Below the pieces are notes generated by a model. That model did no database searches. It saw nothing but the letters and a program-made list of their open reading frames with translations, and was not told where the DNA came from. Made by a program: the position numbers and the translations under genes. 64,000 bases of DNA from Thermoprotei archaeon (GTDB lineage Archaea > Thermoproteota > Thermoprotei > Gearchaeales > WAQG01), in contig JBMFIF010000002.1 of the NCBI GenBank assembly GCA_049976445.1, forward strand, positions 5,115-69,114, written 5' to 3'. Positions 47 to 47,799 of the stretch are shown in pieces; position 1 is the stretch's first letter, and every line of letters starts with the position of its first letter.

Positions 47-322
47 TTATTTTGTTTTTTGTGTTTTTTGTGCTGTGAGTGTTTTGTGTTTTGTGAGGTA
101 CCAGTATCTTAGGGCTATTGTTTTTCTGTTGTTTGTTGTTTTTGTTGGTTCTATGATTACTTTTCTTGGTATTTCTGTCGAGAGTCTTGTCCTGCATCTT
201 GGGCATCGACCGTTAATACTGTACCTCTTAATCACATCAACGGGACTGATAGCCTCCTCAGTATCATAATACAAAAGATAACCACAAGCCCTACACACAA
301 CACTCATCGGCATCCAACACAC
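47..322 (-). CDS. small zinc-ribbon protein (CxxC-x25-CxxC)
   Basis: 91-aa ORF with two CxxC pairs (CRACG...CPRC). The plus-strand ORF at 75..269 overlaps it and is low-complexity. Confidence 0.35.
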   Translation of the reverse strand: MCWMPMSVVCRACGYLLYYDTEEAISPVDVIKRYSINGRCPRCRTRLSTEIPRKVIIEPTKTTNNRKTIALRYWYLTKHKTLTAQKTQKTK

Positions 323-496: not shown

Positions 497-1420
497 TTAT
501 ACTAGTCTAGGGCAAACGATGTATAATGGGCATGAAGAACAATATTTAACTTTATCACGGCACCAATATTTTCCAACAAGTTCTAATGCGGAGAGTATTT
601 TTGGGTTTTCAGGGAAAAGTTTGTCGCTTATTTTTTTAACTATTGTTGATATTTTCTCTTTATCCTGTATTTTTGCGTCTTCTTGTGTTATGAAGCCAAG
701 TTCTGTTAATGGTCTTAGTAGGGAATTGGTGATTGGTATTCTGATTTCATTGTGAACGTTCTCCCATAGCCCGTAGACCATTGTTATCTGCCAGATTGTC
801 ATGTCTGCAAATTCTGAATCGCAACTGGGTAGTGTGCTTAATGCTTGGCGAAGTATGTTGAGTGCATCTTTTTGATTTTTGGGTTTTCCATTTGAAATGA
901 TATTATTTATTATTTGCTTTTTTTCATTATATTCTAGATCTGTGTATTGGTTGATATCATCTTTTATTGTATTTACGAGATTCCATGAAAAGTCTATTAA
1001 ATCTTCGACATTACTATTTATTATCCATTTGGCAATTATGCTTAGTGTTTTGGATACTTTTTTAATCTGAGTTTCGTTCATGTTTTTTGCTTGTTTAATT
1101 GTTGAGAATGCTAAAAATACGTGTTCCTCATCTGTATATGATTCGATTGATGATGCAATATCGCCTATCTTATTCATTAATTTCCATGCAATGTGAAGTG
1201 TTTTATTTTTCATGATGTTATTTTGATGGTCTAGAAGGTTCACGAGCATTATTCCGAAGATTAAAGATTCTTTTGATAAGGAAATTTTATTAATACCTAT
1301 TTTACTCATTCGTTTCTCTATTCTATCGTTATTCTTCTCGTTCAACTCATATAATCTTTCTCTGAGATAACTGATGGTTCCATTTTTGATGTTAATCATT
1401 CCTTTGTCTGTTAGAAACAT
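497..1420 (-). CDS. HhH-GPD / endonuclease III-like protein with [4Fe-4S] cluster loop, probably catalytically inactive
   Basis: The C-terminus has VGKYWC-x6-C-x2-C-x5-C, the EndoIII/MutY Fe-S cluster loop. The preceding segment aligns to the HhH-GPD region but lacks the catalytic Lys/Asp equivalents. It lies 75 bp downstream of cdvC on the same strand. Confidence 0.55.
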   Translation of the reverse strand: MFLTDKGMINIKNGTISYLRERLYELNEKNNDRIEKRMSKIGINKISLSKESLIFGIMLVNLLDHQNNIMKNKTLHIAWKLMNKIGDIASSIESYTDEEHVFLAFSTIKQAKNMNETQIKKVSKTLSIIAKWIINSNVEDLIDFSWNLVNTIKDDINQYTDLEYNEKKQIINNIISNGKPKNQKDALNILRQALSTLPSCDSEFADMTIWQITMVYGLWENVHNEIRIPITNSLLRPLTELGFITQEDAKIQDKEKISTIVKKISDKLFPENPKILSALELVGKYWCRDKVKYCSSCPLYIVCPRLV

Positions 1421-1495: not shown

Positions 1496-2638
1496 TTAGA
1501 GTGCTTTATGTTGTTCAAACCATTTTTGATAGCGCTCTATCATATCTTTAGTTATGCTTGGCTTTCTGTTTTTGATCACAATTTTAAAATCTTCCATCGT
1601 AATGCTTCTAGGCTCATTTCTGTTATTATGTTCAAAGAATTCTTCGATAACCTTTATGTGAGCATCTCTACACACATCTAGAATATCGCTAGCTGAGTAA
1701 CCCTCAGTCATTTTAGCTAACTCCTCAAGATCTATGGAAGGGTCTAGTTTAAGTTTTGATGTATAGAATTTAAATAACTCAATCCTAGACTTAAAATCTG
1801 GAGGAGGTACTAGTATTCTTTTTTGGAATCGTCTTATAAAAGCTTCATCTAACATCCAAGGTTTATTAGTAGTTCCGATAACAAATATGAGCCGATCTCT
1901 ATCTTTTTCCATTAATCCATCCATTTCTTTGAGTAGTTGTGTGCGCATTCTAGTCTCACCACCAACTTCCTGAAAATGTATTGATGCTAACGCGTCGACC
2001 TCATCTATAAGAATTATTACTGGCTTGTTCTGTGATTCTAGTCTCCTTGCTTCTTTGAATACTCTAGCAATATTTTTTTCTGATTCGCCAAGCCATTTTG
2101 ACATAACATTAGAACTATCAATAAGCATTACTATAGCGTTAATTTCATTTGCAACAGCTGCCATTAACATAGTCTTACCACAACCAGGTGGACCAAAGAG
2201 AAGAATACCCCTTGGCCAACCCAACGGAAAAAGATCACGTCTCTTTATTGGATACACTATTGAATGAATTATTGCTCTCTTTGCATCTTCAAGACCGATT
2301 ATATCCTCCCATCTAATATTCGGCCTGCTCCCCAAGATATACTCTGCATCAATGTTAGATCTTTCCTTTTCACTACTATAATAATAGTTACCAATTTCTT
2401 CTGGTTGATCTTCTAATAATTTTTCAAGCTCTTCGACTTTATTTCTATACATCATTATGTAACGTGCATAGTTCCTATTCATTATGCTATCTGGATATAA
2501 CTCAATTAATTTCGATAGTGCATCTATAGCTCTTCTATAATATCTAATTGCTTCACTATATTGTTTGTTATTTTCATATTGGATAGCTTTAGTGGCATTT
2601 TCCCGTGCATAATCTAACAGTTCTTTACTCGCATACAT
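1496..2638 (-). CDS. cdvC: Vps4-like AAA+ ATPase CdvC (N-terminal MIT domain + AAA domain)
   Basis: N-terminal helical MIT-like region, Walker A GPPGCGKT, Walker B ILIDEVD, 380 aa, immediately downstream of an ESCRT-III gene. Confidence 0.9.
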   Translation of the reverse strand: MYASKELLDYARENATKAIQYENNKQYSEAIRYYRRAIDALSKLIELYPDSIMNRNYARYIMMYRNKVEELEKLLEDQPEEIGNYYYSSEKERSNIDAEYILGSRPNIRWEDIIGLEDAKRAIIHSIVYPIKRRDLFPLGWPRGILLFGPPGCGKTMLMAAVANEINAIVMLIDSSNVMSKWLGESEKNIARVFKEARRLESQNKPVIILIDEVDALASIHFQEVGGETRMRTQLLKEMDGLMEKDRDRLIFVIGTTNKPWMLDEAFIRRFQKRILVPPPDFKSRIELFKFYTSKLKLDPSIDLEELAKMTEGYSASDILDVCRDAHIKVIEEFFEHNNRNEPRSITMEDFKIVIKNRKPSITKDMIERYQKWFEQHKAL

Positions 2639-2662
2639 TTGCTATCTACTCCTTCAGGTGAT

Positions 2663-3511
2663 TTACTCAGGTTTCAACTTACCGGCACGACTTAAACTGT
2701 CTATTGCCCTCCTTACATCATCAGGAGAAACGCCTAAATATCTAGCACAGTCCATTACATTAAGCTCACCATTATGTTCTAAAACCCACAAATAAACTTT
2801 ATCTTCCAGAGAGAGAAGTTTCTCAGTTCTCACGTTTATAACTTTATTTTGGGTACTTGAACTTTTATCAGACCTTGAAAGCGGGCCCTCTCCTATACTA
2901 ATAGACTCAGCAACCTTTTGAACTTTATCGGTAATCTTCTCTTTAGAAGCTGTAGGAGGTTCAGGTAATAAAGACCTTTCTTTTATCATAGTACCTGCAA
3001 CTGCAGCGGCTTCTTTCAGGATCTTATTCAGATCTGCATCACTTGTATCTAAGGGTAATGTTTCAAATGTATCTGGATATTTTGCACCTAACTGTTCAAG
3101 TACAGCGTTTGATAAGACATTAAGATCGTTTTCAAGTTCTGGTGCGATTTGTGGTATTACAGTACGAACATCGCTTATAAGACCTTGTAATGAGGAAAGT
3201 AGACTAGCAGCATCACCTAACTCAATAATTGTCTCAAGTCGTAACAGTAGTTGCTCTAATGAAATACTTGCACTTTCAACAGATTTAACTAGCTTCCTTA
3301 ATTCAGCTACCTCATTAGCATATATTGTAGCATATTGAGCATTTCCTGATGCTTGAGCTGTTACAACCTTGTCAAACATCTCTTTCTCTTTTTTCCTCAA
3401 CCTGTATTTGGCTAATTCTAAACGTGAAACATAACTTCTAAGTTTTATTATAGTATCATTAATTATATCTTTAAGATCACGCCTTCTTTTTAAAAAATTT
3501 ATTCTAACCAT
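2663..3511 (-). CDS. cdvB: ESCRT-III (Snf7-family) protein CdvB with C-terminal winged-helix domain
   Basis: Snf7-like helical hairpin (YANEVAELRKLVK...), acidic linker and C-terminal wH-like segment (MDCARYLGVSPDDVRRAIDSLSRAGKL). Positioned 24 bp upstream of cdvC. Confidence 0.8.
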   Translation of the reverse strand: MVRINFLKRRRDLKDIINDTIIKLRSYVSRLELAKYRLRKKEKEMFDKVVTAQASGNAQYATIYANEVAELRKLVKSVESASISLEQLLLRLETIIELGDAASLLSSLQGLISDVRTVIPQIAPELENDLNVLSNAVLEQLGAKYPDTFETLPLDTSDADLNKILKEAAAVAGTMIKERSLLPEPPTASKEKITDKVQKVAESISIGEGPLSRSDKSSSTQNKVINVRTEKLLSLEDKVYLWVLEHNGELNVMDCARYLGVSPDDVRRAIDSLSRAGKLKPE

Positions 3512-3635
3512 GATGAATCAGCTCCTTCCCCATAATTAGGGGAAATAAACGAAGAAAAAGTGAGAAAAAATGATTGTTAATAAAAAAGAAAAAATGATAT
3601 GAAAATAAAAAATTATTTAGGCTATTTATATCATC

Positions 3636-3666
3636 CGCCGCTGAGGCATGTTCATAGCCTGCGGCG
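3636..3666 (-). terminator. GC hairpin (CGCCGC-19 nt-GCGGCG) followed on the minus strand by a T-run
   Basis: 6-bp GC stem located 21 bp after the stop of the ESCRT-III paralog, followed by a T-rich tract in transcript sense. Confidence 0.3.
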
Positions 3667-3686
3667 TCCATATTATGCACCTAGTT

Positions 3687-4325
3687 TTATGTAGTTGAGG
3701 GGCCTTTCTCTTTTTCTGGACTTGGAAGCTCTGAAAACTCTTTGCTTCTACTTTCAGCAACAGCCTGTGCTTCTTTGAGTATTTTTTCAGCTTCTTCACT
3801 CTGTGGACCGAAGGCTCCAAAGTGAACGCCTGAGATCTCTCCAGCTTCAGTGAGTACAGATGTTAGTGCTTCGCCTATGTCGCCTAGTTCTCTCTCAGCT
3901 TCAGGTAATATGCCTATTAATTGTCTCTTAACAGCGTTCACAACACCTATTGCAGGTTCGATTGCAGCAACAACATCACCTATCTCTTTAATCGTACCAA
4001 GTCTTAATATTACGGATTCTAGTGCTATCTTACTCTGAAGTACTACTTTGGCAACTTTTCTTACTCCAGCTACTTCGTTAGCATACATGTATGCACGATC
4101 AGAATCATTCTTTATGTACGCGTTAACCAATTGCTCGAAAAGTCTGCGATCTCGCTCTTGTAAACGGTGATAAAGTTGGTCGAGTTTCATAGTTTGAGTT
4201 TCAAGTTTTCTTGTAACTTGGTCGATTTTATTCTTTAACGGTGGTGATGGATATACTGCATCCCTTATTCTTCCCGAAAGGGGCTCTTTCGGCTCCCTTT
4301 CCCATCTTCTTGCGAAGTTTGCCAT
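3687..4325 (-). CDS. ESCRT-III (CdvB-family) paralog lacking the winged-helix domain
   Basis: 212 aa, same Snf7 core pattern as the neighbouring CdvB (YANEVAGVRKVAKVV...LRLGTIKEIGD) with an acidic C-terminus. It occupies the position where cdvA sits in Sulfolobales. Confidence 0.7.
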   Translation of the reverse strand: MANFARRWEREPKEPLSGRIRDAVYPSPPLKNKIDQVTRKLETQTMKLDQLYHRLQERDRRLFEQLVNAYIKNDSDRAYMYANEVAGVRKVAKVVLQSKIALESVILRLGTIKEIGDVVAAIEPAIGVVNAVKRQLIGILPEAERELGDIGEALTSVLTEAGEISGVHFGAFGPQSEEAEKILKEAQAVAESRSKEFSELPSPEKEKGPSTT

Positions 4326-4565: not shown

Positions 4566-5957
4566 TTATCCTAACATAAGTTTAATGCTTCTGAGGAAAT
4601 CTGAAAAGCATTCGCGAGCAATGTTTGTTATTGATAAATCTTTTTTACTGATGTTTTTGGATAATCGTTCTATTCTATATGATACAGGTGGATGTGCATC
4701 AAACCATTTTAACCACGAATAGGCTCTAGTAGAGTAATCTTGTTCATACTTGAGTCTTCTATATCCTATCCTCTTTAATGCCTCTATGAGGGAATCAGCG
4801 CTATTTGTATAAAATGCTCCTACTAGGTCAGCTCTTTCCTCAAAAAATTTTGCGATGAAAAATACTGTTGTGAAGGAGAGCATTAGGTATAAGTAAGCTA
4901 ATATGATTGGTATGTTTAATGTTATGAGAATTCTTATGATGTATTCAATAGAGAATAATGTTGATACTATTATAGGATCGTAATTGACTATGTGACTAAA
5001 TTCGTGAGCAATGACAGCCTTGATCTCATTTTCTTTTAATGTCATCAGTAGACCAATCGTTATTGCTATGGTAGCATATCTTTTTGAGATACCTGTTGCT
5101 GCAGCGTTTGATATTGTTGTATTTATTAGAGTGATTTTAGGCATGTTGATACGAAAGTTTTTTCTTACTTCATCAACTAGTCCGTATACATCTATACTAG
5201 TTATCTTAACATTCAGAACGTTTATGCCATATTTGTTTAGTATGTTTGTTACTGTCAGGTTGTCTATGGAGTTGTTTATTTTTATTGTTTGTTCGTAGAT
5301 TTCTTTTTTAATTTGTGCTTTATTTTTAGATATTATGTTAATGCTTTTTATGTATTCATTTTCTGGTATCCAGCATTCGACTATGTATGCGTGTCGATTA
5401 TCTTGAGTGATTTTGTAGTCACTAATTTTTAGCATTATCTTATCTGAGAATAGCAAGATTACATATTGACTTAGAACTAATAATATTGGTAAATAATATC
5501 CTAAAAAGTAAAAGCCGATTGTAGCTATTAGAATTAATATACCAATCATAGCGATTGGGTTTCCTAAAAGAAGTTTTAGTATAATATTTTCTGTTCTCGA
5601 TTTTTCTGTTAAGTAATACTTATCTGTGAAAAGGAAAGCGACGGATTTTGCAGGTTGTTGTAATGTGAGAGCTGGATAGAGTAAGCCTTTTATTATCTCA
5701 TACGCCTTGTTAGCAATTTTAATATCCCCGTTTGACCAGATTACTACCATTGGTTCTTCTTCAGGGACTATTATTGCTCGTGCATTTATTTGTTGTAAGG
5801 ATATCTCTATTGCACTGTAATTCTGGAAAGTTGTTTCTGTAAAAGGTATGTTTTTTTCTTCAATTTTTTTCTTTACATCATTTTTGTTTAAGGATTCTGG
5901 TAATCGATATATGAATGGTATGTTGCTATCTTCTGGACTAGCCAGCATCAAAGTCAC
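4566..5957 (-). CDS. membrane Zn-metalloprotease, M48/HtpX-like (HEXXH)
   Basis: IAHEFSHIV (HExxH) embedded in a multi-TM region, with an N-terminal soluble domain; 463 aa. Confidence 0.55.
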   Translation of the reverse strand: MTLMLASPEDSNIPFIYRLPESLNKNDVKKKIEEKNIPFTETTFQNYSAIEISLQQINARAIIVPEEEPMVVIWSNGDIKIANKAYEIIKGLLYPALTLQQPAKSVAFLFTDKYYLTEKSRTENIILKLLLGNPIAMIGILILIATIGFYFLGYYLPILLVLSQYVILLFSDKIMLKISDYKITQDNRHAYIVECWIPENEYIKSINIISKNKAQIKKEIYEQTIKINNSIDNLTVTNILNKYGINVLNVKITSIDVYGLVDEVRKNFRINMPKITLINTTISNAAATGISKRYATIAITIGLLMTLKENEIKAVIAHEFSHIVNYDPIIVSTLFSIEYIIRILITLNIPIILAYLYLMLSFTTVFFIAKFFEERADLVGAFYTNSADSLIEALKRIGYRRLKYEQDYSTRAYSWLKWFDAHPPVSYRIERLSKNISKKDLSITNIARECFSDFLRSIKLMLG

Positions 5958-25571: not shown

Positions 25572-25952
25572 TTACATACTAAGACTTAATAATGTTAATT
25601 CATCAATTGTTTGATTAAACAATGCCTCATAAAGACCAGCGACCCTCTCTAAAATAATAATACCTTTAGTTAACACGTTATACCTAAACTTTACTTGCAA
25701 CTCATCTATTGGAACAACATCAAAAGGAATTCTTAAAAACTCTTCTAATCTAGCAGAAAGTAATGCATAATATTTAAACTCCTTATTCATAGAATAAATG
25801 GCAATATCAACATCCCTAAAACTTTTTAACTCCACAAAACTACCAAATATGATTGCTAGAAGCACATCTTTTTCACTCTCAAAAAACTCTCTAATGGAAT
25901 TCATGACAGTTTTCTTATCAATCCTATAATACTTAAATCTTGAAAGCATCAC
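25572..25952 (-). CDS. minimal nucleotidyltransferase (MNT), antitoxin-type
   Basis: GSFVELKSFRDVDIAIY (GS...DxD) pol-beta-type NTase motif; 126 aa; overlaps the HEPN gene by 20 bp. Confidence 0.7.
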   Translation of the reverse strand: MMLSRFKYYRIDKKTVMNSIREFFESEKDVLLAIIFGSFVELKSFRDVDIAIYSMNKEFKYYALLSARLEEFLRIPFDVVPIDELQVKFRYNVLTKGIIILERVAGLYEALFNQTIDELTLLSLSM

Positions 25953-26355
25953 TAATCCTCCTAATAAAATTCATAACATTAACAAAATCACTTCTAATAT
26001 TCTCATATATCTTCTCGTCAATAATAATCCAATATCTATGAACAAGTAAATTTCGCAACTTAAACATGCTCACAAAATCCTTATACTCTTCATCAATCAA
26101 AAGACCCTTATCTCTTAAAATATTTAAGGCATGAATTGAAGATTCAGGTTCAACATTATAAAATCTCCTAACAATGTGAAGAGCTAAAGCACTCAAAGCT
26201 TCAGCAATCACAATGATATGATATCTAACTGCATACCTCTCAGTAAGACTTATTTCTTCAAACGACTTACTAACATAATCACTAATAATATTTATAGATT
26301 CCATAATATCTTTAATAAGTTTCTTAATAAAATCTCTATTAACATCCACTCTCAA
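25933..26355 (-). CDS. HEPN domain protein, toxin-type
   Basis: RNLLVHRY (R-x4-HR HEPN motif); 140 aa; upstream partner of the MNT gene. Confidence 0.65.
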   Translation of the reverse strand: MRVDVNRDFIKKLIKDIMESINIISDYVSKSFEEISLTERYAVRYHIIVIAEALSALALHIVRRFYNVEPESSIHALNILRDKGLLIDEEYKDFVSMFKLRNLLVHRYWIIIDEKIYENIRSDFVNVMNFIRRISDAFKI

Positions 26356-26983: not shown

Positions 26984-28093
26984 CTAAATGAGTTCGTTAA
27001 TTTTAGTAGTAAGTCTTTTATATTCATCTTCAATTTTAAGTGCTAGTTCATCTGGGTTTAATTTCATCTTTATTTGTGCTATTAATGCTGTTCCGCCTGC
27101 TCCTACTCCTTCCTTCACATAACCATTTTCGTACGCTTTAAGTCCATAAAATTTTGATTTCGAAAAATTTAGTGTTGTGGCAATTATTGGTATTTTTTCG
27201 ATTTGGCTTACTAAACCTATAATATCGGAACTCCTGTCTTCTATAATCCATTTAGTGGTTCCAATTGCTACCTTGTCTAAATTAATATTCTTATGTTTCA
27301 ATAGTGCTAGCACTGAAGACATTTGAGTTCCACCGGCTAATAATACATGAGAGTTTATTTTTACTATGCCCTCAGTTAATCCTGCCATAGCTATCATCAC
27401 AGGATCACCAACTTTGCTCGCAGCAAGTAAAGGATTTTCTTTAGCTTGCTTGATACTTAGGTTAGCATTTTTTAAGCTCTCCTCAGCTATCCTTATTTTT
27501 AGATCATGCGGGTTATTAGCATCTGCACTACTTATTTTGTATCTAGCGTCATAACCAAGGGCTAAGAGAAAAGTTAGAGTGGTTGTAGTGCCACCTGGTA
27601 TACTTTCACCGATGAGAACAGTATCAGCTAATAATCCCAACTCTTTACCAAAAAGTTTAGCATTTTCATATATTGTGATCGCATCATCATATTTCATGGC
27701 GTTTCCAGTCCTTATATCATTACCGACAACACCACCTACATCTATGAAAGGAACTTTAGGTTTTACATAACAACCAGCGTTTACTACAAAGAAGGGTATG
27801 TTGAGTAGTTGTAATACTGTCCTAGTTATTATTGCGGGTGTTGGAATACCATCAGGCGTTGTTGGTATTACGTTGAAACTGATAACCTTACCATAAAAAA
27901 GATACTCTATATCACCAGTCGGAGTATATAGTGTTGCTTCGGGGTTAGCCCCAGCTATACTAAGACCAGGAATTTTTGATGTTAATGTTGATCCTATTAC
28001 ATAGACAGCTAGCAGGTTAGATTTTTCTATACGTTTAGTGAATTGTTCTCCTTTTTCAGGCATGTACGCATACATAATACTCATACAAACCAC
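26984..28093 (-). CDS. cobT: CobT-like nicotinate-nucleotide--dimethylbenzimidazole phosphoribosyltransferase (archaeal type)
   Basis: IGESIPGGTTT glycine-rich loop and overall archaeal CobT-like layout; 369 aa; cobamide gene neighbourhood. Confidence 0.6.
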   Translation of the reverse strand: MVCMSIMYAYMPEKGEQFTKRIEKSNLLAVYVIGSTLTSKIPGLSIAGANPEATLYTPTGDIEYLFYGKVISFNVIPTTPDGIPTPAIITRTVLQLLNIPFFVVNAGCYVKPKVPFIDVGGVVGNDIRTGNAMKYDDAITIYENAKLFGKELGLLADTVLIGESIPGGTTTTLTFLLALGYDARYKISSADANNPHDLKIRIAEESLKNANLSIKQAKENPLLAASKVGDPVMIAMAGLTEGIVKINSHVLLAGGTQMSSVLALLKHKNINLDKVAIGTTKWIIEDRSSDIIGLVSQIEKIPIIATTLNFSKSKFYGLKAYENGYVKEGVGAGGTALIAQIKMKLNPDELALKIEDEYKRLTTKINELI

Positions 28094-29124: not shown

Positions 29125-29139
29125 GGTTGGATTATCCAG
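29125..29139. promoter_or_regulatory. operator-like repeat copy 2 (GGTTGGATTATCCAG)
   Basis: Overlaps the annotated TTG start of the btuF-like gene; 87 bp from copy 1 with TATA-like boxes between. Confidence 0.4.
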
Positions 29140-30383
29140 ACTTGGTGAATAACTTGAGTGATAGGAATACTCGTTACTTATTAAGTCTAATAATTATAAT
29201 AGTGATAGTACTGGGAGTTACTATACCTCTTTATATGGAAATTAATTCTTTAAGAGATGAAATTTCTAGATTACGTAATGATATATCAGCACTTAGTTTA
29301 AGTTCTAAGCAACTTACCTCACAGTTTAATAGTAGTCTCACACAATTAAATGCAGCTTATAAGAGCCTTGAAGATAGGTATAATAAATTATTTCAACAGT
29401 ATTCATCATTGTCTGAAAGTATTAAGTATCCTTTTACAATTACTGATGCTCTTGGAAGAACTGTAACGATAGTTTCAAGGCCAGTTCGAGTTATAAGTAC
29501 GGCACCTAGTGTGACAGAAATGCTTTTTGCTATAAATGCAGAAAAACTTATTGTAGGTGTTGATAAGTATTCAGATTATCCGCCTACAGTAAAAGATTTA
29601 GTTAAAAATAGTACAATTAAGCTGGTTGGTGGTTTTTCGACTGTTGATGTGGAGGCTATTGTAGCACTAAAGCCTGATATTGTATTTATGACACCGGGCG
29701 TGCAAACACCTTTCGTATATAGGTTAGCAGAACTTGGACTAACCGTCGTCGCTTTAAAGGAAGATAGTATATCGGATGTGTTTGATTCGATAATGCTCGT
29801 AGGGAGAATTCTTGATAAGATTGATGGGGCATTAAACGTTGTCGCATCTATGAAGTCTAAAATCACTTATGCGTTCTCAAAGGTTGAGAATTATATTAAA
29901 TCTGTTAATATTACAAGGGTTAAAGTGTATTGGGAAGTATGGCCTGAACCAATATATACCGTTGGTTCACAAAATTTTATAAATGATATAATTACACTAG
30001 CAGGAGGGGTTAATATTTTTGGTGATATAAAATCAGGCTATCCAGTCGTAAGTTCTGAGGAAGTTATAAACAAAACTCCTGATGTTATAATAACAACTGA
30101 TCATGGTGGGGTTTATGGATCGCCACAGGATGTATTAAATATGATCAGGAATAGAACTGGATGGAATGTAATACCAGCTATAAAAAGTAATAGAGTTTAT
30201 GTGTTAACGGGCCAGTTTGGGTCTATGTTTATAAGGCCTGGTCCAAGAGTTGCAGATGCAATTCTTCAACTTGCCGTAATATTATATCCTGAGGCATTTG
30301 GTATGAGTAAAATCATGATACCGAACATAATAAGCACATCGTTTAACGTTACAACATATATTAGTTTGTTAATTGTTTCATAA
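29127..30383 (+). CDS. btuF: ABC transporter substrate-binding protein, BtuF/FhuD-like (cobalamin/siderophore class)
   Basis: Signal-anchor TM, then class III SBP pattern (RVISTAPSVTEMLFAI...GVDKYSDYP); start ambiguous (TTG 29127 or GTG 29145). Confidence 0.65.
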   Translation: MDYPDLVNNLSDRNTRYLLSLIIIIVIVLGVTIPLYMEINSLRDEISRLRNDISALSLSSKQLTSQFNSSLTQLNAAYKSLEDRYNKLFQQYSSLSESIKYPFTITDALGRTVTIVSRPVRVISTAPSVTEMLFAINAEKLIVGVDKYSDYPPTVKDLVKNSTIKLVGGFSTVDVEAIVALKPDIVFMTPGVQTPFVYRLAELGLTVVALKEDSISDVFDSIMLVGRILDKIDGALNVVASMKSKITYAFSKVENYIKSVNITRVKVYWEVWPEPIYTVGSQNFINDIITLAGGVNIFGDIKSGYPVVSSEEVINKTPDVIITTDHGGVYGSPQDVLNMIRNRTGWNVIPAIKSNRVYVLTGQFGSMFIRPGPRVADAILQLAVILYPEAFGMSKIMIPNIISTSFNVTTYISLLIVS

Positions 30384-31410
30384 TACAATGAGCAGTAATT
30401 ATATACAAAGGAGATATTCCCGCCTTATTTTTTCTGTTATTGTTCTAATCATGTTAGTAGGAGTTTTAAGTATATTATCCATTAGTGTTGGTTCTGCGTT
30501 TATAAATCTGCCGGAATCTTTAAAAGCTTTGGTTGATTCTGATAACGTTGATGTATATACAAGAATTATAATATGGGAGATTAGAGTTCCTAGGACATTA
30601 AGCGCTATTTTTATAGGAATGTTGATGGCTTTAGCTGGGCTTTTTATGCAGACTGTTACTCTGAATCCTCTTGCTGATCCTTATTTAACAGGTATGGCTT
30701 CTGGTGCACTGTTAGGTGTTAGTATAACTATTGTGCTTTCACCTTTAATCGTTAGTCCTTATGTTATAGTTATCTCAGCGTTCTTTGGAGCCTTGTGCGC
30801 CATGATATTAACACTTCTAATTGCAAGTAAATTTCGCTTAGATCCAATAGGACTCATACTGGGAGGTGTTGCAGTCTCTATGATTTTTTACTCATTTTCT
30901 GCGATACTTCAGTTTATTGGAGGTGAAAAGATGGTTATGATAATTATATGGAGTCTTGGAAGCTTGAGTACTGCATCATGGTCAAGAACATGGTTTACTG
31001 GCATTACTGCAATAATTCTTATACCCCTTTCTATAATTATGTACAAATCGTTGAATGCTTTATTACTTGGTGATGAGAATGCACAAAGTATTGGTGTAAG
31101 TCCGAAGTTAACACGATCATTTTCCTTGCTAATATCCTCAATTGCCACGGCAATCTCAGTGTCAATGTTTGGTGTGATAGGCTTTGTTGGATTAGTAGCA
31201 CCTCATTTAGCACGTCTCGCATTAAGGAGCGGTGATCATTTAATAGTCATACCAGTCACATGTCTTGTTGGATCCGCTATCATGCTTTTAAGTGATGTGA
31301 TAGCTAGAATAATAGGTTCTCCTGGAGAATTTCCGTTAACTCCTATAATGAGTTTAATTGGTGCTCCGCTACTTATTTATTTAATGAGTAGGAGGTTTAA
31401 AAATGGTTAA
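30373..31410 (+). CDS. btuC: ABC permease BtuC/FecCD family
   Basis: 345 aa, about 9-10 TM helices, FecCD-type conserved glycine-rich segments. Confidence 0.8.
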   Translation: MFHNTMSSNYIQRRYSRLIFSVIVLIMLVGVLSILSISVGSAFINLPESLKALVDSDNVDVYTRIIIWEIRVPRTLSAIFIGMLMALAGLFMQTVTLNPLADPYLTGMASGALLGVSITIVLSPLIVSPYVIVISAFFGALCAMILTLLIASKFRLDPIGLILGGVAVSMIFYSFSAILQFIGGEKMVMIIIWSLGSLSTASWSRTWFTGITAIILIPLSIIMYKSLNALLLGDENAQSIGVSPKLTRSFSLLISSIATAISVSMFGVIGFVGLVAPHLARLALRSGDHLIVIPVTCLVGSAIMLLSDVIARIIGSPGEFPLTPIMSLIGAPLLIYLMSRRFKNG

Positions 31411-32179
31411 ACTAATCATAGATAATCTTTCTGTTAATTATGGTTCAATAAAAGCATTAGAAGATATTAGTATAAAACTTGACAAAGGCATGATGGTATC
31501 AATAATAGGACCTAACGGTTCTGGAAAGACAACACTTCTCAGATCTATAGCAAGAATAGTAAAACCAGTAAAAGGTGTAATCTATATTGATGGAAAAAAT
31601 ACTAACGAACTATCATTAAAAGATCTAGCTCATCATGTATCATACACATCTACATTGAAAGTAAAAGAGGGTTTTGAACTCACAGTGGGCGATATAGTTT
31701 TTATGGGTAGATATCCAAGAACTGGATTTATGATGAGTCATACTGATGAAAGAATTGTGAACGATGTATTAAATAAGTTTCGCATTACTCATTTAATGAA
31801 TAGAAAAATAGATGAGCTTAGCGATGGTGAACGGCAAAAAACCTTTTTAGCAAGAGCCTTAGCTCAAGAATCAGAAATAATACTTGTAGATGAACCATTA
31901 GCGCATCTTGATCTAAAAGCACAACTTGAAGTCTTAAAAATACTTAAAAATGAAGCAAACGATGGAAAGCTTGTAATAATGACCTCACACGAGATAGACT
32001 TACCGATTAAATACAGTGATGTATTAATAGTAATGAAAAAAGGAGAAATATTAGCAGCAGGAAAACCTAATGAAATACTAACAGAAAAAATAATAGAAAA
32101 TGCTTATGGTGTTAAATGTCGTATAATCAAAGATAAAGAATATTCACTTATAGTACTTCTTGACACACTCAGTGATTAG
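31403..32179 (+). CDS. btuD: ABC ATPase BtuD/FepC-like
   Basis: Walker A GPNGSGKTT, signature LSDGERQ, Walker B ILVDEP; 258 aa. Confidence 0.8.
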   Translation: MVKLIIDNLSVNYGSIKALEDISIKLDKGMMVSIIGPNGSGKTTLLRSIARIVKPVKGVIYIDGKNTNELSLKDLAHHVSYTSTLKVKEGFELTVGDIVFMGRYPRTGFMMSHTDERIVNDVLNKFRITHLMNRKIDELSDGERQKTFLARALAQESEIILVDEPLAHLDLKAQLEVLKILKNEANDGKLVIMTSHEIDLPIKYSDVLIVMKKGEILAAGKPNEILTEKIIENAYGVKCRIIKDKEYSLIVLLDTLSD

Positions 32180-32181
32180 TA

Positions 32182-33282
32182 ATGAAGGAATTAAAACAAC
32201 CAGTACACGGTGGTAGAGTATGGGATGCAGCAGAAAAACTCAACATAAACGTTGAAAAGATTATAGATTTTAGTACAAATACAAATCCATTAGGACCTCC
32301 AAAACAATTAATAACAACATTAATAAAAAATATTAACACTGTTGCTTATTATCCAGATCCTGACTATAGAACATTAAGGATGGAATTGGCAAGGTTTTAT
32401 AACATTAATGAAGAGAATATTATAGTTGGTAATGGTGCAACTGAACTTATACATCTATTTGCACAAACATTCATCTCAGAAAATGACAGAGTAATAATAC
32501 CAATACCCACGTTTGAAGAATACCAATATGCATCACAGAAAGTTAGCGCAAGAATTATTTATATAAAGTCAAAAAACAATATGCACATAAACATAGACAA
32601 AATAATATCAAAAATGAACAATACAAAGGTCATATTTGTATGTAATCCAAATAACCCAACAGGAATATTAGAAAAACAAGAAGATATACTCAATCTAATA
32701 AAAGAGGCTAATAAGAGAAACGTACTAGTTTTTCTTGATGAAAGCTTTATGGATCTAGTAGTTACAAAAAAGCCGTACACGTTAATAAGATCAGTAAACA
32801 TGTTTGATAATCTTTTTATAATAAGATCACTAACAAAAATCTTCAGCATACCCGGATTAAGGATAGGTTTTGGTGTATCTTCAAAGTACTTAATAAAAGA
32901 ACTTAATAAACATAAAATACCATGGAATGTCTCAACACTTATTGAAAAAACTATTCCAGAAGCACTAAAATATGCAAGACAATATCTAAAAACATCAAGA
33001 AAAATAATCAAACAAGAAAGAAACTATATGATAAGTGAACTATCGAAAATTGATGGTATTAAAGTAATAAGCGGTGATGCTAATTTTCTCTTCATAGATA
33101 TAAGTGAAACTGGACTCACATCATCAGAATTAGCAGATCAATTAATAAAACATCGTATACTAATACGAGATTGTAGCACTTTTACAGGACTGAACAACTC
33201 GTACATAAGAATAGCAATAAAGAAACACCGAGAAAACATACTACTAATAAATGCTCTGAAAACAATAGTGATAAGAAAATGA
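32182..33282 (+). CDS. cobD: L-threonine-O-3-phosphate decarboxylase CobD-like (class II aminotransferase fold)
   Basis: HisC-like PLP enzyme with Lys in IRSLTKIF; 366 aa; cobamide cluster context. Confidence 0.6.
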   Translation: MKELKQPVHGGRVWDAAEKLNINVEKIIDFSTNTNPLGPPKQLITTLIKNINTVAYYPDPDYRTLRMELARFYNINEENIIVGNGATELIHLFAQTFISENDRVIIPIPTFEEYQYASQKVSARIIYIKSKNNMHINIDKIISKMNNTKVIFVCNPNNPTGILEKQEDILNLIKEANKRNVLVFLDESFMDLVVTKKPYTLIRSVNMFDNLFIIRSLTKIFSIPGLRIGFGVSSKYLIKELNKHKIPWNVSTLIEKTIPEALKYARQYLKTSRKIIKQERNYMISELSKIDGIKVISGDANFLFIDISETGLTSSELADQLIKHRILIRDCSTFTGLNNSYIRIAIKKHRENILLINALKTIVIRK

Positions 33283-34235
33283 ACTCCTTCCACACAAGTA
33301 TAATAATTTTAGTATTAGCAGTACTCATAGATATATTATTTGGAGAACCTCCACTCAAAGTTCATCCAGTAGTTTGGGTTGGTAGATTAATTAAATATTT
33401 GGAACGTTACTGTCATGGAGGAAGCACTCAACTAGAGAAAATTAAAGGTACGATGATGGCTATATCAGTAATTATAATATCCATCACAATAACATACATC
33501 GCTTTAAAAATAGTACAGTCTTATCTCGGTTTATATGGATACATAATAATAGCATCTATAATATTCAAAACAACTTTTTCAATACGATCCATGAAAGATC
33601 ACATAAAACCAATAGCTATCTCGTACGAGAAAAATAATAAAGAAAAGGCCAAAGTATTATTGTCACGAGTCGTAAGAAGAAATCCCTGGCAACTCACTGA
33701 TGAACAAATAATCTCAGCTGCAATAGAGACGACAGCAGAAGGCATAGTAGATGGTATAACATCAGCATTGTTCTATTACAGTATACTTGGAATACCAGGT
33801 GCAATAATGCAACGAGTTATAAACACATTGGACTCAATGGTTGGGTATAAAGATGAATATTATAAGAATGTAGGATGGTTCTCAGCAAAATTAGATACAA
33901 TAATAAACTTTATACCAGCTCGTCTCACAGCAATTACTATAGTACTGGCATCATTAATTTTAAAAAAAGATTATAAATTAAGCTTTAAAATAGCATTAAC
34001 AGACCATAAAAATACTGAAAGTCTTAATGCGGGATGGCCAATGTCAGCAATGGCAGGCGCTCTAAGAATACAACTAGAAAAACCCGGACATTACAAACTT
34101 GGGATTCCAATGCAAAAACTAAAGCCAGAACTCATATACGATGCATTAAACATAATGTATACATCAACAACACTTTTCATAATAACAATAATAATTCCTA
34201 TACTTATTCTCTTTAATATCTACCTATTTTTATAA
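33279..34235 (+). CDS. cbiB: adenosylcobinamide-phosphate synthase CbiB
   Basis: LDSMVGYK...GWFSAKLDTIINFIPARLTA matches the CbiB/CobD-membrane family signature; 318 aa, multi-TM. Confidence 0.7.
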   Translation: MNSFHTSIIILVLAVLIDILFGEPPLKVHPVVWVGRLIKYLERYCHGGSTQLEKIKGTMMAISVIIISITITYIALKIVQSYLGLYGYIIIASIIFKTTFSIRSMKDHIKPIAISYEKNNKEKAKVLLSRVVRRNPWQLTDEQIISAAIETTAEGIVDGITSALFYYSILGIPGAIMQRVINTLDSMVGYKDEYYKNVGWFSAKLDTIINFIPARLTAITIVLASLILKKDYKLSFKIALTDHKNTESLNAGWPMSAMAGALRIQLEKPGHYKLGIPMQKLKPELIYDALNIMYTSTTLFIITIIIPILILFNIYLFL

Positions 34236-34342
34236 TTAAAAAACTTACCAGAAAGCACGTGTTCACAAAATGAAATGATCTGATTTTTCGTTATCATTTA
34301 GTTATTTGCGTTAATTTTAAAATATAAGTTTTATAAATTATT

Positions 34343-35158
34343 TTGATAAAAATGTGGTATTTAGATACTCTAGACCGTAAACCTTTAGGTAGAACAAGAG
34401 AAACTGTACCTGCGATCGGTATTGGAACATGGGCTGTAAGGGACTTTAATAAAGCCGAAACAGCTTTAGTTAAAGCAGTAGAGCTTGGGCTTAATATGAT
34501 AGATACTGCAGAAATGTACCACACAGAAGAACTTGTAGGTAAAGTTATCAAAAAGGTTGGTAAAGAGAACGTTTTCATAACAACTAAACTTTTACCTGAA
34601 CACTTTTCAGATGTTGACAATGCATTAAATGCAGCTAAATTAAGCCTTTCAAGATTAGGAATTAATATTGTCGATTTAATTCTAATACACTGGCCTAGAA
34701 CCTTCACACCCATCGAAAAACAAGTCAGAATACTAGAGGCAATAGCCAACGCAGGGTATTCCAGATACATAGGTGTGAGTAATTTTAATGTTAACCAGCT
34801 TTCAAAAGCAACACAATCAACCAAAAAACATGAAATAGTAGTAAACCAAGTAAAATATAGCGTGTTAGATCGAACAATAGAGGATAACTTATTATTATAT
34901 GCTATAGAGCATGGTATAACAATACAAGCATACACACCATTAGAGAAAGGTAAGGTTTCAAACAATAAAATTTTATCTGAAATAGGTAAAAAATACAATA
35001 AGACACCAACACAAGTAGCATTAAATTATCTTATCTCTAACCCCATGGTGACTGCAATACCAAAAACAGAAAAAATCGAAAGAGTATTAGAATTTAAAGG
35101 ATCATTAGGATGGAGACTTATGAAAGAGGACATAGAATTCATTAAGAGCAAAATTTAA
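34343..35158 (+). CDS. aldo/keto reductase
   Basis: AKR motifs (IDTAEMYHTEELVG; LIHWP); 271 aa. The overlapping minus ORF 34294-34998 is a shadow frame. Confidence 0.8.
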   Translation: MIKMWYLDTLDRKPLGRTRETVPAIGIGTWAVRDFNKAETALVKAVELGLNMIDTAEMYHTEELVGKVIKKVGKENVFITTKLLPEHFSDVDNALNAAKLSLSRLGINIVDLILIHWPRTFTPIEKQVRILEAIANAGYSRYIGVSNFNVNQLSKATQSTKKHEIVVNQVKYSVLDRTIEDNLLLYAIEHGITIQAYTPLEKGKVSNNKILSEIGKKYNKTPTQVALNYLISNPMVTAIPKTEKIERVLEFKGSLGWRLMKEDIEFIKSKI

Positions 35159-35192
35159 CCCTAAAAACCTTTAGCTTATCCAGCTATCCTTT

Positions 35193-35241
35193 CTCTGACC
35201 TCTTCCCCACCCTGAAGGGCGAAGTTTGTCCTTCTTTTATC
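35193..35241 (-). repeat. GC-rich repeat element, short form (inverted relative to 26527-26673)
   Basis: Reverse complement GATAAAAGAAGGACAAACTTCGCCCTTCAGGGTGGGGAAGAGGTCAGAG equals the long form with the segment between its two CTTCAGGGYGG cores deleted. Confidence 0.5.
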
Positions 35242-35298
35242 AACGAAGAGTGAAGCTTAAATAAATTTTTCAAATAGAAGAATCGTAAGTGAACAAAA

Positions 35299-36411
35299 AT
35301 GAATAACACTCAAAACGTAAAAATCTATTTTAAAGATAATACACTCATCATCGAATCAGCATCAGAAATGGAAGTACTGAGTAGTGCTGTATTCAATGGT
35401 GGAAGACAAAAAGCACAATATATAATAAACTATAAGGTTTCTAAAACCTTTGATGATCCAAAACCAGCACTATACCTAAAAAATGTAATAGAAAAACTAG
35501 GATTACCTCACGATTCAACAATAGGATTAATGACAGCTGCTGATGTTCACAATGCTTCAATAATTAATGAAGGACCAGTTACAGCAATAATTACTGCAGG
35601 CCTTTCAAATACAGCAACCGCCGGTGATGATATAGCAGTACAAAACATCGGAACGATTAATATGATTATTATAGTAAATGGATTACTAAACGAAAACGCT
35701 TTTGTAGATGCAATAATAACTGCCACAGAAGCAAAAACAGTAGCACTTGATCAATTAGATATTATAAGTAGAGTATCAAGAAAAAGAGCAACAGGAACAA
35801 CAACTGATTCTATAGTAATAGCATGCACACAACAAGGTGAAAGATATGAATATGCAGGCACAGCGACAAAAATAGGTAATATGATAGCTAAAAGTGTCAT
35901 AAAAGGTGTTTTAGAAGCCATAAAACTCCAGGAAAATATAACATCATCTAGACCAATATTAAAAAGATTAGAAGAAAGAGGAATTACACTAAAGGATCTC
36001 GTAGAAACGGGTATGGAACTTTATATACATCACCCAAGCATGGGAACAATAGAGAACGCAAGAAAAACATTAGAAGAAATATTGATAGAATCAATGAATG
36101 ATATAAATGTTGCATCATTAATTATTGCCGGAATAAGGATAGAGGAGGAAGGAAGAAAGGGTTTAATACCTGGTCTTACAAGAGAAGAATTTGAAAAAGA
36201 TCCTGTAAATCTAGTGGCTGATGAGTTAATAGGAATGGCTATAGCTGATTACATAGCAGGTTCAAGAGGTATTTTTGAATATGTCAGGTTTGATAGAATA
36301 AAACCAGGCATTATCAGAAATCTAGGGCCCTTCATGGATGACATAATCGGAGCATTAATAGGTGGAGCGTCATCACTCATGTATACAAAATTACTTAAAA
36401 AACAGAAGTGA
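35299..36411 (+). CDS. cbiZ: CbiZ-like adenosylcobinamide amidohydrolase domain protein (extended)
   Basis: N-terminal region resembles the CbiZ family; 370 aa, longer than canonical CbiZ; directly upstream of cobS/cobY with overlapping stops and starts. Confidence 0.4.
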   Translation: MNNTQNVKIYFKDNTLIIESASEMEVLSSAVFNGGRQKAQYIINYKVSKTFDDPKPALYLKNVIEKLGLPHDSTIGLMTAADVHNASIINEGPVTAIITAGLSNTATAGDDIAVQNIGTINMIIIVNGLLNENAFVDAIITATEAKTVALDQLDIISRVSRKRATGTTTDSIVIACTQQGERYEYAGTATKIGNMIAKSVIKGVLEAIKLQENITSSRPILKRLEERGITLKDLVETGMELYIHHPSMGTIENARKTLEEILIESMNDINVASLIIAGIRIEEEGRKGLIPGLTREEFEKDPVNLVADELIGMAIADYIAGSRGIFEYVRFDRIKPGIIRNLGPFMDDIIGALIGGASSLMYTKLLKKQK

Positions 36412-37151
36412 TCAAGTTGATAAAACAATTAAAAGCCCTCTTATCATTTCTTACAATAATACCAGTAAAAGAGGAACACGATCTAAAAACAATTGCAGAA
36501 GGTATACACCTCTTTCCATTGATAGGATTTTTCACCGGAATCCTAACAGGATTTATAGCATACCTTATCTCAAGAGTATACCTAAGTCTTTTAACGGGAA
36601 TAATAGCAGTATCATTCCTGGAATTTATAACAGGACTTCACCATTTTGACGCATTGTTAGATTTTGGTGATGGTATTATGGCTAAAACAACACCAGAAAA
36701 GAAAATAGAAATTATGCATGATAAACAAACAGGAAGCGGCGGATTCTGGTTAGGTATTACAATAATTGGAATAAAAATATTTTCAATATCACAATTACAT
36801 GGATTACAACTCTTTACAGCAATAATTCTTTCAGAAATCTCCGCAAAACTTTCAATGGTAATAGGAATGTGGCTAGGCAACCCAGCTTACCCCTCTAGTA
36901 CAGCAGTACCGTTCATAGAAGAAGCACATAAAAACCCTAAAAAACCATTAATAGCTCTTATATTCTCATTATTCATAGCATTACTCTTCATGACAGAAGG
37001 AATATTAATGATAATTACAAGCATAATAGTGGCAGTAATCATTGAACATCTATCACAAAAACATTTTAAAGGTATAACTGGCGATGTATTGGGATCCATG
37101 GATGAAATAACATCAGCTCTCTCATTATTAGTATTAGTGAGCATAATATGA
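36408..37151 (+). CDS. cobS: adenosylcobinamide-GDP ribazoletransferase (cobalamin synthase) CobS
   Basis: 247-aa polytopic membrane protein of CobS size and topology, in an operon with cobY. Confidence 0.6.
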   Translation: MIKLIKQLKALLSFLTIIPVKEEHDLKTIAEGIHLFPLIGFFTGILTGFIAYLISRVYLSLLTGIIAVSFLEFITGLHHFDALLDFGDGIMAKTTPEKKIEIMHDKQTGSGGFWLGITIIGIKIFSISQLHGLQLFTAIILSEISAKLSMVIGMWLGNPAYPSSTAVPFIEEAHKNPKKPLIALIFSLFIALLFMTEGILMIITSIIVAVIIEHLSQKHFKGITGDVLGSMDEITSALSLLVLVSII

Positions 37152-37768
37152 TAAAAATTAAAGCTCTAATCATGGCAGGAGGAAAAGCAACCAGAATGAA
37201 TAACATAGAAAAACCCCTCATAAAAATATGCGGAACCACAATGATAGAAAGAATACTCAATGCACTAAAGAACACTAAGTGCATAGAAGATGTATATATA
37301 ACAACAAGTAAAAATACGAAAAACACAGAAATCCTACTTAAAACCTTAGGATATAAAACAATAACAACTTCAGGAGAAGATTATGTAGAAGACTTAAAAA
37401 ACACAATTATAAAACTAAACATAAAAGATCCCATATTAGTATTACCATCCGATCTACCATTAATAACACCAAATACAATAGAACAATTAATCAATATTTA
37501 CATACAAAACAACTCTCCACCAACAACGACGTTTTACATACCATTGCAACTACTAAAAACAAAAATACGAACAAACTACATAGAACAAATAAATAATATA
37601 AAAGTAATACCATCTGGCATTAGTATAATAAAAGGATCATACATTACGCAAAATGTAATACCGCAAATAAACATAATAGTCGAAAACACAGAATTAAGCG
37701 TTAACGTGAATACGTTATTAGATATAAAAATTGCACAATCAATTTTATGCAAAAGAAATAATAAGTAG
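37148..37768 (+). CDS. cobY: adenosylcobinamide-phosphate guanylyltransferase CobY (archaeal NTP-transferase type)
   Basis: MAGGKATRM nucleotidyltransferase G-loop; 206 aa, as in archaeal CobY. Confidence 0.6.
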   Translation: MIKIKALIMAGGKATRMNNIEKPLIKICGTTMIERILNALKNTKCIEDVYITTSKNTKNTEILLKTLGYKTITTSGEDYVEDLKNTIIKLNIKDPILVLPSDLPLITPNTIEQLINIYIQNNSPPTTTFYIPLQLLKTKIRTNYIEQINNIKVIPSGISIIKGSYITQNVIPQINIIVENTELSVNVNTLLDIKIAQSILCKRNNK

Positions 37769-47200: not shown

Positions 47201-47799
47201 TTGTATCCGTAAGCCCTTCAATCAGTTATTTGGGGTCAGTACCGATAGTACTTTCAATTACTTTTGTAGATCCTGCAGGCTTCAGGCATAATATTACTCA
47301 GACAGCAATTCTTTTCATAGAAGGTCTTGCTGAAATAAAGTTCGTTGATGTAACCGTGGAGCCAAAACCTATCTATTTAGGTTCCACAATAACAATATCG
47401 GCAACATTAATCAACTTAGGAACTTATAAGGCCGGAAACGTTGAGGCATGGTTAGAGGGTAATGACATAATTACACTTTCTAATTCATATACGTTTGTGG
47501 GTGATATAGATGTTGGTTCGCAAATACCGATAAGTTTATCAGCTAATATAAGCAACAAAGCTGTAAATAAAACAATCGTGTATATAGTAATTAAATTTAA
47601 GAATGTTTTTAATGAAATAACGACTGAACGGTATCCGATAGTTCTGAACATTACATATAAACCTCCACAGACGCAAACACAAGCGCAGAGTCTTATTTTA
47701 CCAAATGTATACGAACTTTTAATAATTGTAGCTACTGTTATATTCCTATCAGTAAGTGGATATATGATCTATCTCTTGTATAAGAAAACAAAGCATTAA
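44221..47799 (+). CDS. large secreted surface protein with about 8-9 repeated beta-sandwich (CARDB-like) modules and a C-terminal TM anchor
   Basis: Signal peptide; recurring (V/I)YPGS/T-x-NV...L/V-x-N-x-G modules about 110-130 aa apart; C-terminal hydrophobic helix + KKTKH; 1192 aa. Confidence 0.6.
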   Translation: MKNRFIAAFLMIFILLEIPLYLQSVFASGNFTLVSTLWGSQSNPQKVYPGSSNVRFIVLIRNDYSNLVSVVGYLSLPYGFSGTNGGNVLSAVGYISTNNTIRYNINKGEIFELDYFLNIAGFLAPGTYYGNLTLNFTNSTFSNGNFTMNVPMTVSSFPTFNFQIISVYWSTTGGTIVNAVPGTRNVELNVILKNIGTDNINSISAQLILNKPFNPNKVMSSAQQVNKGSTFTLTFTGISIDFASAPGNYMEQLMINSTFIGYGGATSTYTNMINLSLVIGNYSNAGIQIVSVQWNGGEKVYSGSRKVSLDVVIQNMGSYTISNMLSRIILPSGFTNAYGSNIINTTSTAVLNYGNSITLNFSPIYIGDSTKPGIYYVRLVIMSVVSIDNTNLIAKDNFTIPIYVNDLITPIDLVSVDWSYNGNPAPALPGSQYVILSITFVNRGEDTYSGFQPRLILPRGFTVFGTSADPGPITPGSIFTVRSYVNVSDTVLPGNYIANLTLRFSVNPSGINTVGSMNFSIPLYIMDPKGFDTKISIVNAYWGTGTPNPVYPGSKNVPLTVEIVNVGLYTAQAVQIGISAPETFTPIINSTSVTSTLPSGSFASAVLYFDISPHTTPGSYVFLVNVKYFISVYGATIYRYVKFVFVLYVSQPTSGPPYINVVNSGWLNNYPVYPGTQNATFSLTINNEAPFPIAGIHLKLVLPRGFTPGVNGVESYIGGPIQQWQTASASFSINVNASTLPGLYTASLKIDYILLSGGNNLKNSEEKEIVLRVNSLKGFEYITYNWVGYAPNPGNVGATLIVLVRNTEVPTMKGIVAEIQLPKGFNSTITGTRVFNVTPYIFTSINQVQNLLQRTPVSSLQFMVPQQATQANLGDFLAIPISVSINKNVTPGYYPIIIKLNFLDQWNVVRNVIVNGDFWLPGSSNIIQVVEGKSKLLVGNRTAEINIYLRNNGSSSVYNVYVAITNMEAPISISSTVKYIPIIGPNSEVPVSWVVSVSPSISYLGSVPIVLSITFVDPAGFRHNITQTAILFIEGLAEIKFVDVTVEPKPIYLGSTITISATLINLGTYKAGNVEAWLEGNDIITLSNSYTFVGDIDVGSQIPISLSANISNKAVNKTIVYIVIKFKNVFNEITTERYPIVLNITYKPPQTQTQAQSLILPNVYELLIIVATVIFLSVSGYMIYLLYKKTKH

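Follow-up and report, generated by a model that had tools for sequence, protein, structure and literature searches.

The window analysed here is a stretch of 64,000 nucleotides (nt) with a GC content of ~33%, taken from contig JBMFIF010000002.1 of a Thermoprotei archaeon, and it carries close to its start three genes of the Cdv (ESCRT-type) cell division system, all on the minus strand. In the direction of transcription, these genes encode an ESCRT-III paralogue of 212 residues (3687..4325), CdvB (282 residues, 2663..3511), and the AAA+ ATPase CdvC/Vps4 (380 residues, 1496..2638). An initial annotation made from the sequence had proposed this order and these identities; the open reading frames (ORFs) lie where it placed them, and matches to protein profiles uphold the assignments. 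The locus is a genuine archaeal ESCRT-type division cluster, made of a CdvB1/2-like paralogue, CdvB, and Vps4/CdvC. The genes cdvB and cdvC are 24 nt apart and almost certainly co-transcribed. Between the paralogue and cdvB, in the position that cdvA occupies in other genomes, there is a spacer of 175 nt (3512..3686, same strand) with a GC hairpin, five runs of T, and a Shine-Dalgarno-like sequence.

The 212-residue protein is of the CdvB1/B2 type. It matches best the NCBIfam profile CdvB1/B2 (NF041005, 189.5 bits over residues 3-202 of 212), ahead of CdvB (111.7 bits) and CdvB3 (40.5 bits), and its top match in the PDB is the structure named 'Cell division protein B2' (9s97, 1.5e-43, residues 3-202). 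It lacks a winged helix and has a motif resembling the MIT-interacting motif 2 (MIM2) at its C-terminus (FSELPSP, residues 197-203, nt 3717-3737), within a tail, KE.F.ELP, that is common to the paralogues of Desulfurococcales. The identity with paralogues encoded beside the cdv operons of two Desulfurococcales-type loci (L006 and L013) and of two other lineages (L015 and L016) is 37-44%. CdvC has a single AAA+ cassette (Pfam AAA, residues 145-278, 1.7e-34, with Walker A at 149 and Walker B at 211), preceded by an MIT domain (residues 8-72, 2.5e-8) and accompanied by AAA_lid_3 and Vps4_C (residues 342-376, 1.4e-6). It scores 502.5 bits with the NCBIfam CdvC profile (NF041006) and is 47-54% identical to the CdvC of the four loci above and of the Sulfolobales locus of Metallosphaera (L003).

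CdvB consists of an ESCRT-III core (residues ~12-180), a MIM2, a disordered linker, and a winged helix. The core matches the NCBIfam profiles CdvB (NF041008, 97 bits) and CdvB1_B2 (107 bits), and in the PDB both CdvB2 (9s97, 4.4e-25) and CdvB (9s9j, 9.4e-20). In the AlphaFold2 model, it forms four helices (residues 12-53, 57-117, 122-141, and 157-179) followed by the disordered linker, and a Foldseek search with this model returned CdvB2 and CdvB as top matches. The proline-rich MIM2 (LLPEPP, residues 181-186, nt 2954-2971) lies between the core and the winged helix, and its two prolines show little or no variation among the 19 CdvBs that we aligned. The winged helix (residues 233-282, nt 2666-2815) can be aligned column by column with that of other CdvBs and is modelled as a three-helix module with a predicted local distance difference test score (pLDDT) of 85-94. 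The domain searches thus agree with the initial annotation in placing a winged helix on CdvB and none on the paralogue.

We compared this organisation with other cdv loci by scanning one genome per GTDB species with an alignment of the paralogue and classifying the resulting 80 loci with custom hidden Markov models. These loci are the best matches to the paralogue and are dominated by Bathyarchaeia, so their frequencies are only indicative; the best paralogue in the survey is 47% identical to that of the window, whose own lineage lies outside the genome collection. In 62 of the 80 loci, from Bathyarchaeia, Marsarchaeota, and some Thermoprotei, the paralogue is followed by co-oriented cdvA, cdvB (with a winged helix), and cdvC. 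It is divergent from cdvA-cdvB-cdvC in seven loci and stands alone in nine (Sulfolobales-like or on short contigs). The remaining two (L080 and L083, Bathyarchaeia metagenome-assembled genomes) have paralogue-cdvB-cdvC without cdvA. The loci of two other lineages (L015 and L016) illustrate the most common arrangement, with a paralogue of 212-214 residues, 37-40% identical to that of the window, directly upstream of co-oriented cdvA-cdvB-cdvC. In the Desulfurococcales-type loci (L006, L013, and L017), the paralogue lies between the enolase gene and cdvA and is divergent from the latter.

Since the paralogue adjoins cdvA in these loci (upstream in 62, divergent in 7), the window contains the four-gene cluster paralogue-cdvA-cdvB-cdvC that is common in the Thaumarchaeota, Aigarchaeota, Crenarchaeota, and Korarchaeota (TACK) archaea, minus cdvA. 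The initial annotation had seen the paralogue as an unusual protein in the slot of cdvA, and the organisation as intermediate between the Sulfolobales type and the Thaumarchaeota/Asgard type. Synteny overturns both views: a CdvB1/2-like paralogue linked to cdvABC is a common state and no oddity, and the one in the window does not replace cdvA and has an ancestral-like position. The annotation itself had regarded an ordinary CdvB1/2 paralogue as speaking against its proposal, and the profile search returned precisely such a protein. The likeness to the four-gene clusters (L015, L016, L019-L067, and others) extends to genes, order, and orientation, with paralogues 37-47% identical; the difference is that a spacer with a hairpin replaces cdvA. 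Sulfolobales, for example Metallosphaera (L003), have orthologous CdvB (with MIM2 and winged helix), CdvC (with MIT, AAA, and Vps4_C), and a CdvB1/B2-type paralogue, and cdvB and cdvC are also adjacent and co-oriented there. However, the proteins are only 29-49% identical to those of the window, cdvA lies upstream of cdvB, and cdvB1, cdvB2, and cdvB3 are dispersed, whereas the paralogue of the window is linked to the operon.

The absence of cdvA from the cluster is rare (2 of the 80 other loci), if not unprecedented, and is the sole unusual feature of the locus. The two Bathyarchaeia loci share with the window the cdvA-less order and a CdvB that keeps the winged helix. They differ in sequence (30% identity for CdvB, 42% for the paralogue), and in L083 the junction is 13 nt long and has no hairpin. 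Because their proteins are no closer to those of the window than the proteins of loci with cdvA, the departure of cdvA from the cluster was probably independent in the two groups. We also observed, in L083, two tandem paralogous genes (4575-5763, plus strand; 189 and 208 residues) directly upstream of the ESCRT-III paralogue, whose products have N-termini that look like ribbon-helix-helix domains. Additional cdvA-like and ESCRT-III genes are present near some other Bathyarchaeia loci (L079, L081, L084, L088, and L091).

The arrangement of the window is conserved in its lineage. The order AsxRS, a 93-residue protein, an M48 protease, the paralogue, cdvB, cdvC, a 300-residue protein, and an 88-residue zinc ribbon protein was found in independently assembled sequences of no fewer than four species-level relatives, with CdvB identities of 77-100%. 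They include the NCBI metagenome-assembled genome GCA_049973215.1, with the same arrangement, GCA_049700375.1 (CdvB identity of 100%), a 601-kb contig of GCA_038881895.1 (88%), and several JGI metagenomes and one ENA assembly (77%). A scan of metagenomes with the paralogue added only one further member. A tentative placement of the lineage in Geoarchaeota, prompted by its low GC content and similar sample identifiers, was given up because Geoarchaeia are reported to have CdvABC. The recurrence of this order in independent assemblies excludes an assembly artefact.

We interpret the locus as a standard Cdv core from which cdvA was excised and is now encoded elsewhere in the genome, which we regard as the probable explanation of the observations taken together. 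Under this explanation, cdvA would have been removed from the widespread four-gene cluster, leaving the 175-nt spacer with its hairpin and oligo-T runs, and recruitment would proceed from the relocated gene's product as in other Thermoproteota. The roles of the proteins are proposed by homology to Sulfolobales. CdvB would be the subunit of the template ring, and its recruitment would presumably depend on the winged helix, the domain that binds the E3B tail of CdvA in Sulfolobales. The CdvB1/B2-type paralogue would co-assemble with it and provide the polymer for constriction and abscission, with its own MIM2-like tail. The MIT domain of CdvC would bind both MIM2 tails, and CdvC would disassemble the polymers. 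In Sulfolobus islandicus, ESCRT-III-1 and -2 use a C-terminal MIM2, and deletion of the winged helix abolishes CdvA binding and ring formation (PMC11796394). This is ordinary machinery in an uncommon gene order, and a new mechanism is not demonstrated.

On prior grounds, an encoding of cdvA elsewhere in the genome is the likelier reading, and we hold it with fair confidence, because CdvB keeps the CdvA-binding winged helix and because CdvA occurs almost universally in TACK. CdvA, CdvB, and CdvC are all present in most TACK genomes, CdvA is found even in Thermoproteales, and Bathyarchaeia have extra cdvA-like genes outside the cdv locus (PMC10936438). Concerning the winged helix, a profile restricted to the domain in the lineage of the window matches that of CdvBs from cdvA-containing lineages with a probability of 99% (hhalign, E-value 2.5e-18), and a profile of mixed CdvBs matches the structure of the complex between the CdvB winged helix and the CdvA E3B peptide (PDB 2xvc, 8.9e-10). 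The single CdvB sequence and the lineage-only profile matched neither PF27303 (CdvB_HTH) nor 2xvc, giving only generic winged helix-turn-helix families at ~1e-3. Within the lineage, the winged helix is 77-91% identical to that of the window, the same range as the whole of CdvB (77-88%).

Several observations weigh against this interpretation. The first is that every NCBIfam score is below the curated equivalog cutoff of its profile (370 bits for CdvB, 350 for the paralogue, 650 for CdvC). It is on account of these sub-cutoff scores that we class all three proteins as distant orthologues of their Sulfolobales counterparts, as judged from their sequences. The CdvB equivalog model, which we take to be trained on Sulfolobales, gives a score that argues for a distant orthologue rather than a non-member. 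The second is that no CdvA was found (best E-value ~1) in ~69 kb of the contig or, in relatives, up to 10 kb away from the locus, with a CdvA profile seeded from the cdv loci of Metallosphaera and of an uncultured lineage and expanded to 99 sequences. We searched six-frame ORFs of at least 30 residues in the window, in the adjoining 5 kb of contig past its start, and in the loci of relatives (L001, L002, L005, and L009-L011 were covered besides the window), and the same profile recovered true CdvAs at 1e-88 to 1e-103. The third lies in the last strand of the winged helix, which reads KLKPE in the species of the window: a proline, present in three of the CdvBs of the lineage, replaces the isoleucine, valine, or leucine of other CdvBs and of relatives in the lineage. 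This is the strand that reportedly pairs with E3B, and the substitution could reflect a relaxed constraint on it.

The initial annotation had found no cdvA either in the slot upstream of cdvB or in the rest of the 64 kb, and this stands in both of our analyses. In addition to the negative profile search, a Pfam scan of the main ORFs between 497 and 58896, which leaves aside three ORFs of 317-678 residues beyond 58.9 kb, found housekeeping genes only, with no CdvA, PRC barrel, FtsZ, or SepF, and none of the unassigned ORFs of the window is CdvA-like. We also searched 1.84 billion representative proteins, from a library that holds no provenance, with the CdvA profile. Among the 523 matches, the top 150 fall into ~69 groups, and none could be assigned to the genome of the window; 7-mers from single proteins cover at most ~10% of the CdvA groups, and degenerate DNA patterns for the CdvA motif would, by our estimate, match thousands of times by chance. 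Two candidates for the lineage, P0131 and P0137, were rejected: they come from contigs of other lineages with canonical loci. The matches of a further homologue search were overwhelmingly from Bathyarchaeia.

These results bear on a different explanation, in which CdvA was truly lost and CdvB and the paralogue reach the membrane, for example, through basic or amphipathic N-termini or through another partner of the winged helix. We find this unlikely, even if it is the most serious of the alternatives to a relocated cdvA. All members of the lineage lack the gene in the cluster and none of the sequence examined contains it, the proline in the last strand of the winged helix would fit the loss of its partner, and the paralogue is far more constrained across relatives than CdvB (94-99% against 77-88% identity). 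Some TACK lineages are also reported to have CdvB and CdvC and no CdvA, namely Methanomethylicia (CdvBC) and Caldarchaeales (FtsZ2 and CdvBC), though in these the absence was judged genome-wide (PMC9723716), whereas here it concerns the locus and ~69 kb. This inspected sequence amounts to only ~5-10% of a genome. A true loss is also at odds with the retained winged helix, whose conservation equals that of the ESCRT-III core, and with the near-universal occurrence of CdvA in Thermoproteota, among them lineages that had previously been considered to be without it (PMC10936438). The initial annotation had asked what recruits CdvB to the membrane, a question that truly arises only if the whole genome lacks cdvA. 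In that case, the lineage would offer a natural test of how the ring is placed independently of CdvA by an ESCRT-III protein that still has the CdvA-binding domain, with a bearing on the membrane targeting of archaeal ESCRT-III. If cdvA is encoded elsewhere, the locus is one more data point on the rearrangement of cdv clusters in TACK.

The spacer that stands in the place of cdvA has features of its own. The GC hairpin reported in the initial annotation (GACGCCGC..GCGGCGGA, 3634-3668, minus strand) is where expected, occurs once in the 64 kb of the window, and has a folding z-score of -3.5. It is followed by five runs of at least five T (3555-3559, 3565-3570, 3582-3587, 3589-3594, and 3607-3612) and, ahead of the ATG of cdvB, by the strong Shine-Dalgarno-like sequence GGAAGGAGCTGAT (3517-3529). 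Strong Shine-Dalgarno sequences are mainly known from internal genes of operons or from leadered mRNAs. The annotation had taken the hairpin and the T-runs as a sign that the paralogue and cdvB are separate transcripts. The hairpin is not a classical terminator: it was not flagged in a scan for bacterial-type terminators, because no T-run is adjacent to the stem. Termination in archaea is signalled by oligo-T tracts and not by hairpins, so it is the T-runs that might separate the transcripts. Separate transcripts are therefore possible in view of the T-runs, while the hairpin provides no evidence of termination and fits another type of element.

The hairpin with its flanks (3625..3675, minus strand) has a base resembling a kink-turn (k-turn), AUAUG-GA-CGCCGC ... 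GCGGCG-GAU-GA-UAUA, which is conserved in four relatives. Equivalents lie at approximately L005:9840-9890, L009:7860-7905, and L111:1700-1750. The four species-level relatives share, without any change, the 6-bp GC stem together with the flanks UAUGGA and GGAUGA, and the inner stem varies yet pairs in each of them when the sequences are folded one by one (AGGC/GCCU, AGCC/GGCU, and ACC/GGU). This variation is suggestive of covariation without being a formal case of it: the column-wise analysis of the MAFFT alignment of the hairpin gave no compensatory pairs, with the 3' arm offset by one column in two sequences. The sequences of all four relatives fit the k-turn pattern as defined in PMC6298567 (a helix, a 3-nt bulge, here GAU, tandem G:A/A:G pairs, and a second helix), and no Rfam family matches the hairpin.

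In archaea, L7Ae binds k-turn hairpins in mRNA leaders (PMC5539422). The element of the window resembles the L7Ae-binding k-turns, such as that of the 5' untranslated region of l7ae (PMC5539422, PMC6298567), in being a stem-loop, located in an untranslated region, whose 3-nt bulge precedes tandem G:A pairs. It differs in its location ~105 nt upstream of the cdvB start, clear of the Shine-Dalgarno sequence. It may regulate the division operon through the binding of L7Ae, and if L7Ae does bind it, it would be a candidate for control of an archaeal division operon at the RNA level. A more elaborate scenario, which we consider doubtful, joins this element with the loss of cdvA: the lineage would have dispensed with CdvA and kept the winged helix intact, either for a new partner or with CdvA-independent targeting, and the hairpin would exert post-transcriptional control, for instance L7Ae-dependent, on the ratio of the paralogue to CdvB and CdvC or on the timing of their synthesis.

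The genes around the cluster were considered as sources of a substitute for CdvA, either non-homologous or highly divergent. The candidates are the 300-residue protein downstream of cdvC (497..1399, minus strand; the longest ORF starts at 1420), the 88-residue zinc ribbon protein that follows it (47..310, minus strand, with a CxxC...CxxC pattern), the 93-residue protein, and the N-terminal extension of the M48/HtpX-like membrane metalloprotease (4566..5957, minus strand; Pfam Peptidase_M48, 9.8e-18). In all relatives, these genes accompany the cdv genes in conserved synteny; they are without a family assignment in the regions concerned, and the CdvA-like proteins of Thermoproteales have an N-terminal zinc ribbon (PMC10936438). 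None of the candidates matches the CdvA profile, though, and none has an E3B-like motif at the C-terminus according to a crude regular expression, which is itself uninformative (61% sensitivity for a background of 7.5%). The 300-residue protein is all-helical and ends with a C-X6-C-X2-C-X5-C cluster. This ending presumably resembles the iron-sulphur cluster loop of EndoIII/MutY-type DNA glycosylases, which speaks against such a substitute. Its AlphaFold2 model, made from the single sequence, is unusable (pLDDT of 43), and neither it nor the 88-residue protein has a match in Pfam or the PDB. A substitute among the neighbours is accordingly very improbable in comparison with a cdvA gene encoded elsewhere.

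We give an equally slim chance to the idea that the function of the cluster is vesicle budding or some other remodelling of membranes, with division carried out by a different system. ESCRT-III-1 and -2 of S. islandicus do also drive budding (PMC11796394). However, the proteins of the window are orthologous to the division set and are encoded in a division-type cluster, and the Pfam scans revealed no gene for FtsZ, SepF, or crenactin in the window.

Some of the neighbouring genes are of interest independently of CdvA. The M48/HtpX-like protease is the upstream neighbour of the cluster throughout the lineage and is not found beside the cdv genes of the other lineages examined. The genes for the 300-residue and 88-residue proteins are specific to the lineage and always follow cdvC, and are by synteny alone candidate members of the division system. 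Further along the window, overlapping genes for a Pol-beta-type nucleotidyltransferase (126 residues) and a HepT-like RNase (140 residues) at 25572-26355 (minus strand) look like an MNT/HepT toxin-antitoxin module. A cluster for the salvage and late synthesis of cobalamin (33279-37768, plus strand, and 26984-28093, minus strand) encodes CobD/CbiB, a fusion of CbiZ and PgpA, CobS, and a MobA-like NTP transferase. It adjoins an ABC transporter of the iron/cobalamin type (29127-32179), in a context that otherwise looks like that of a small genome. Finally, a protein of 1192 residues with a single match, to the NPCBM-associated NEW3 domain, is encoded at 44221-47799 (plus strand) and followed by a MacB/FtsX-type permease; it is probably a large surface protein.

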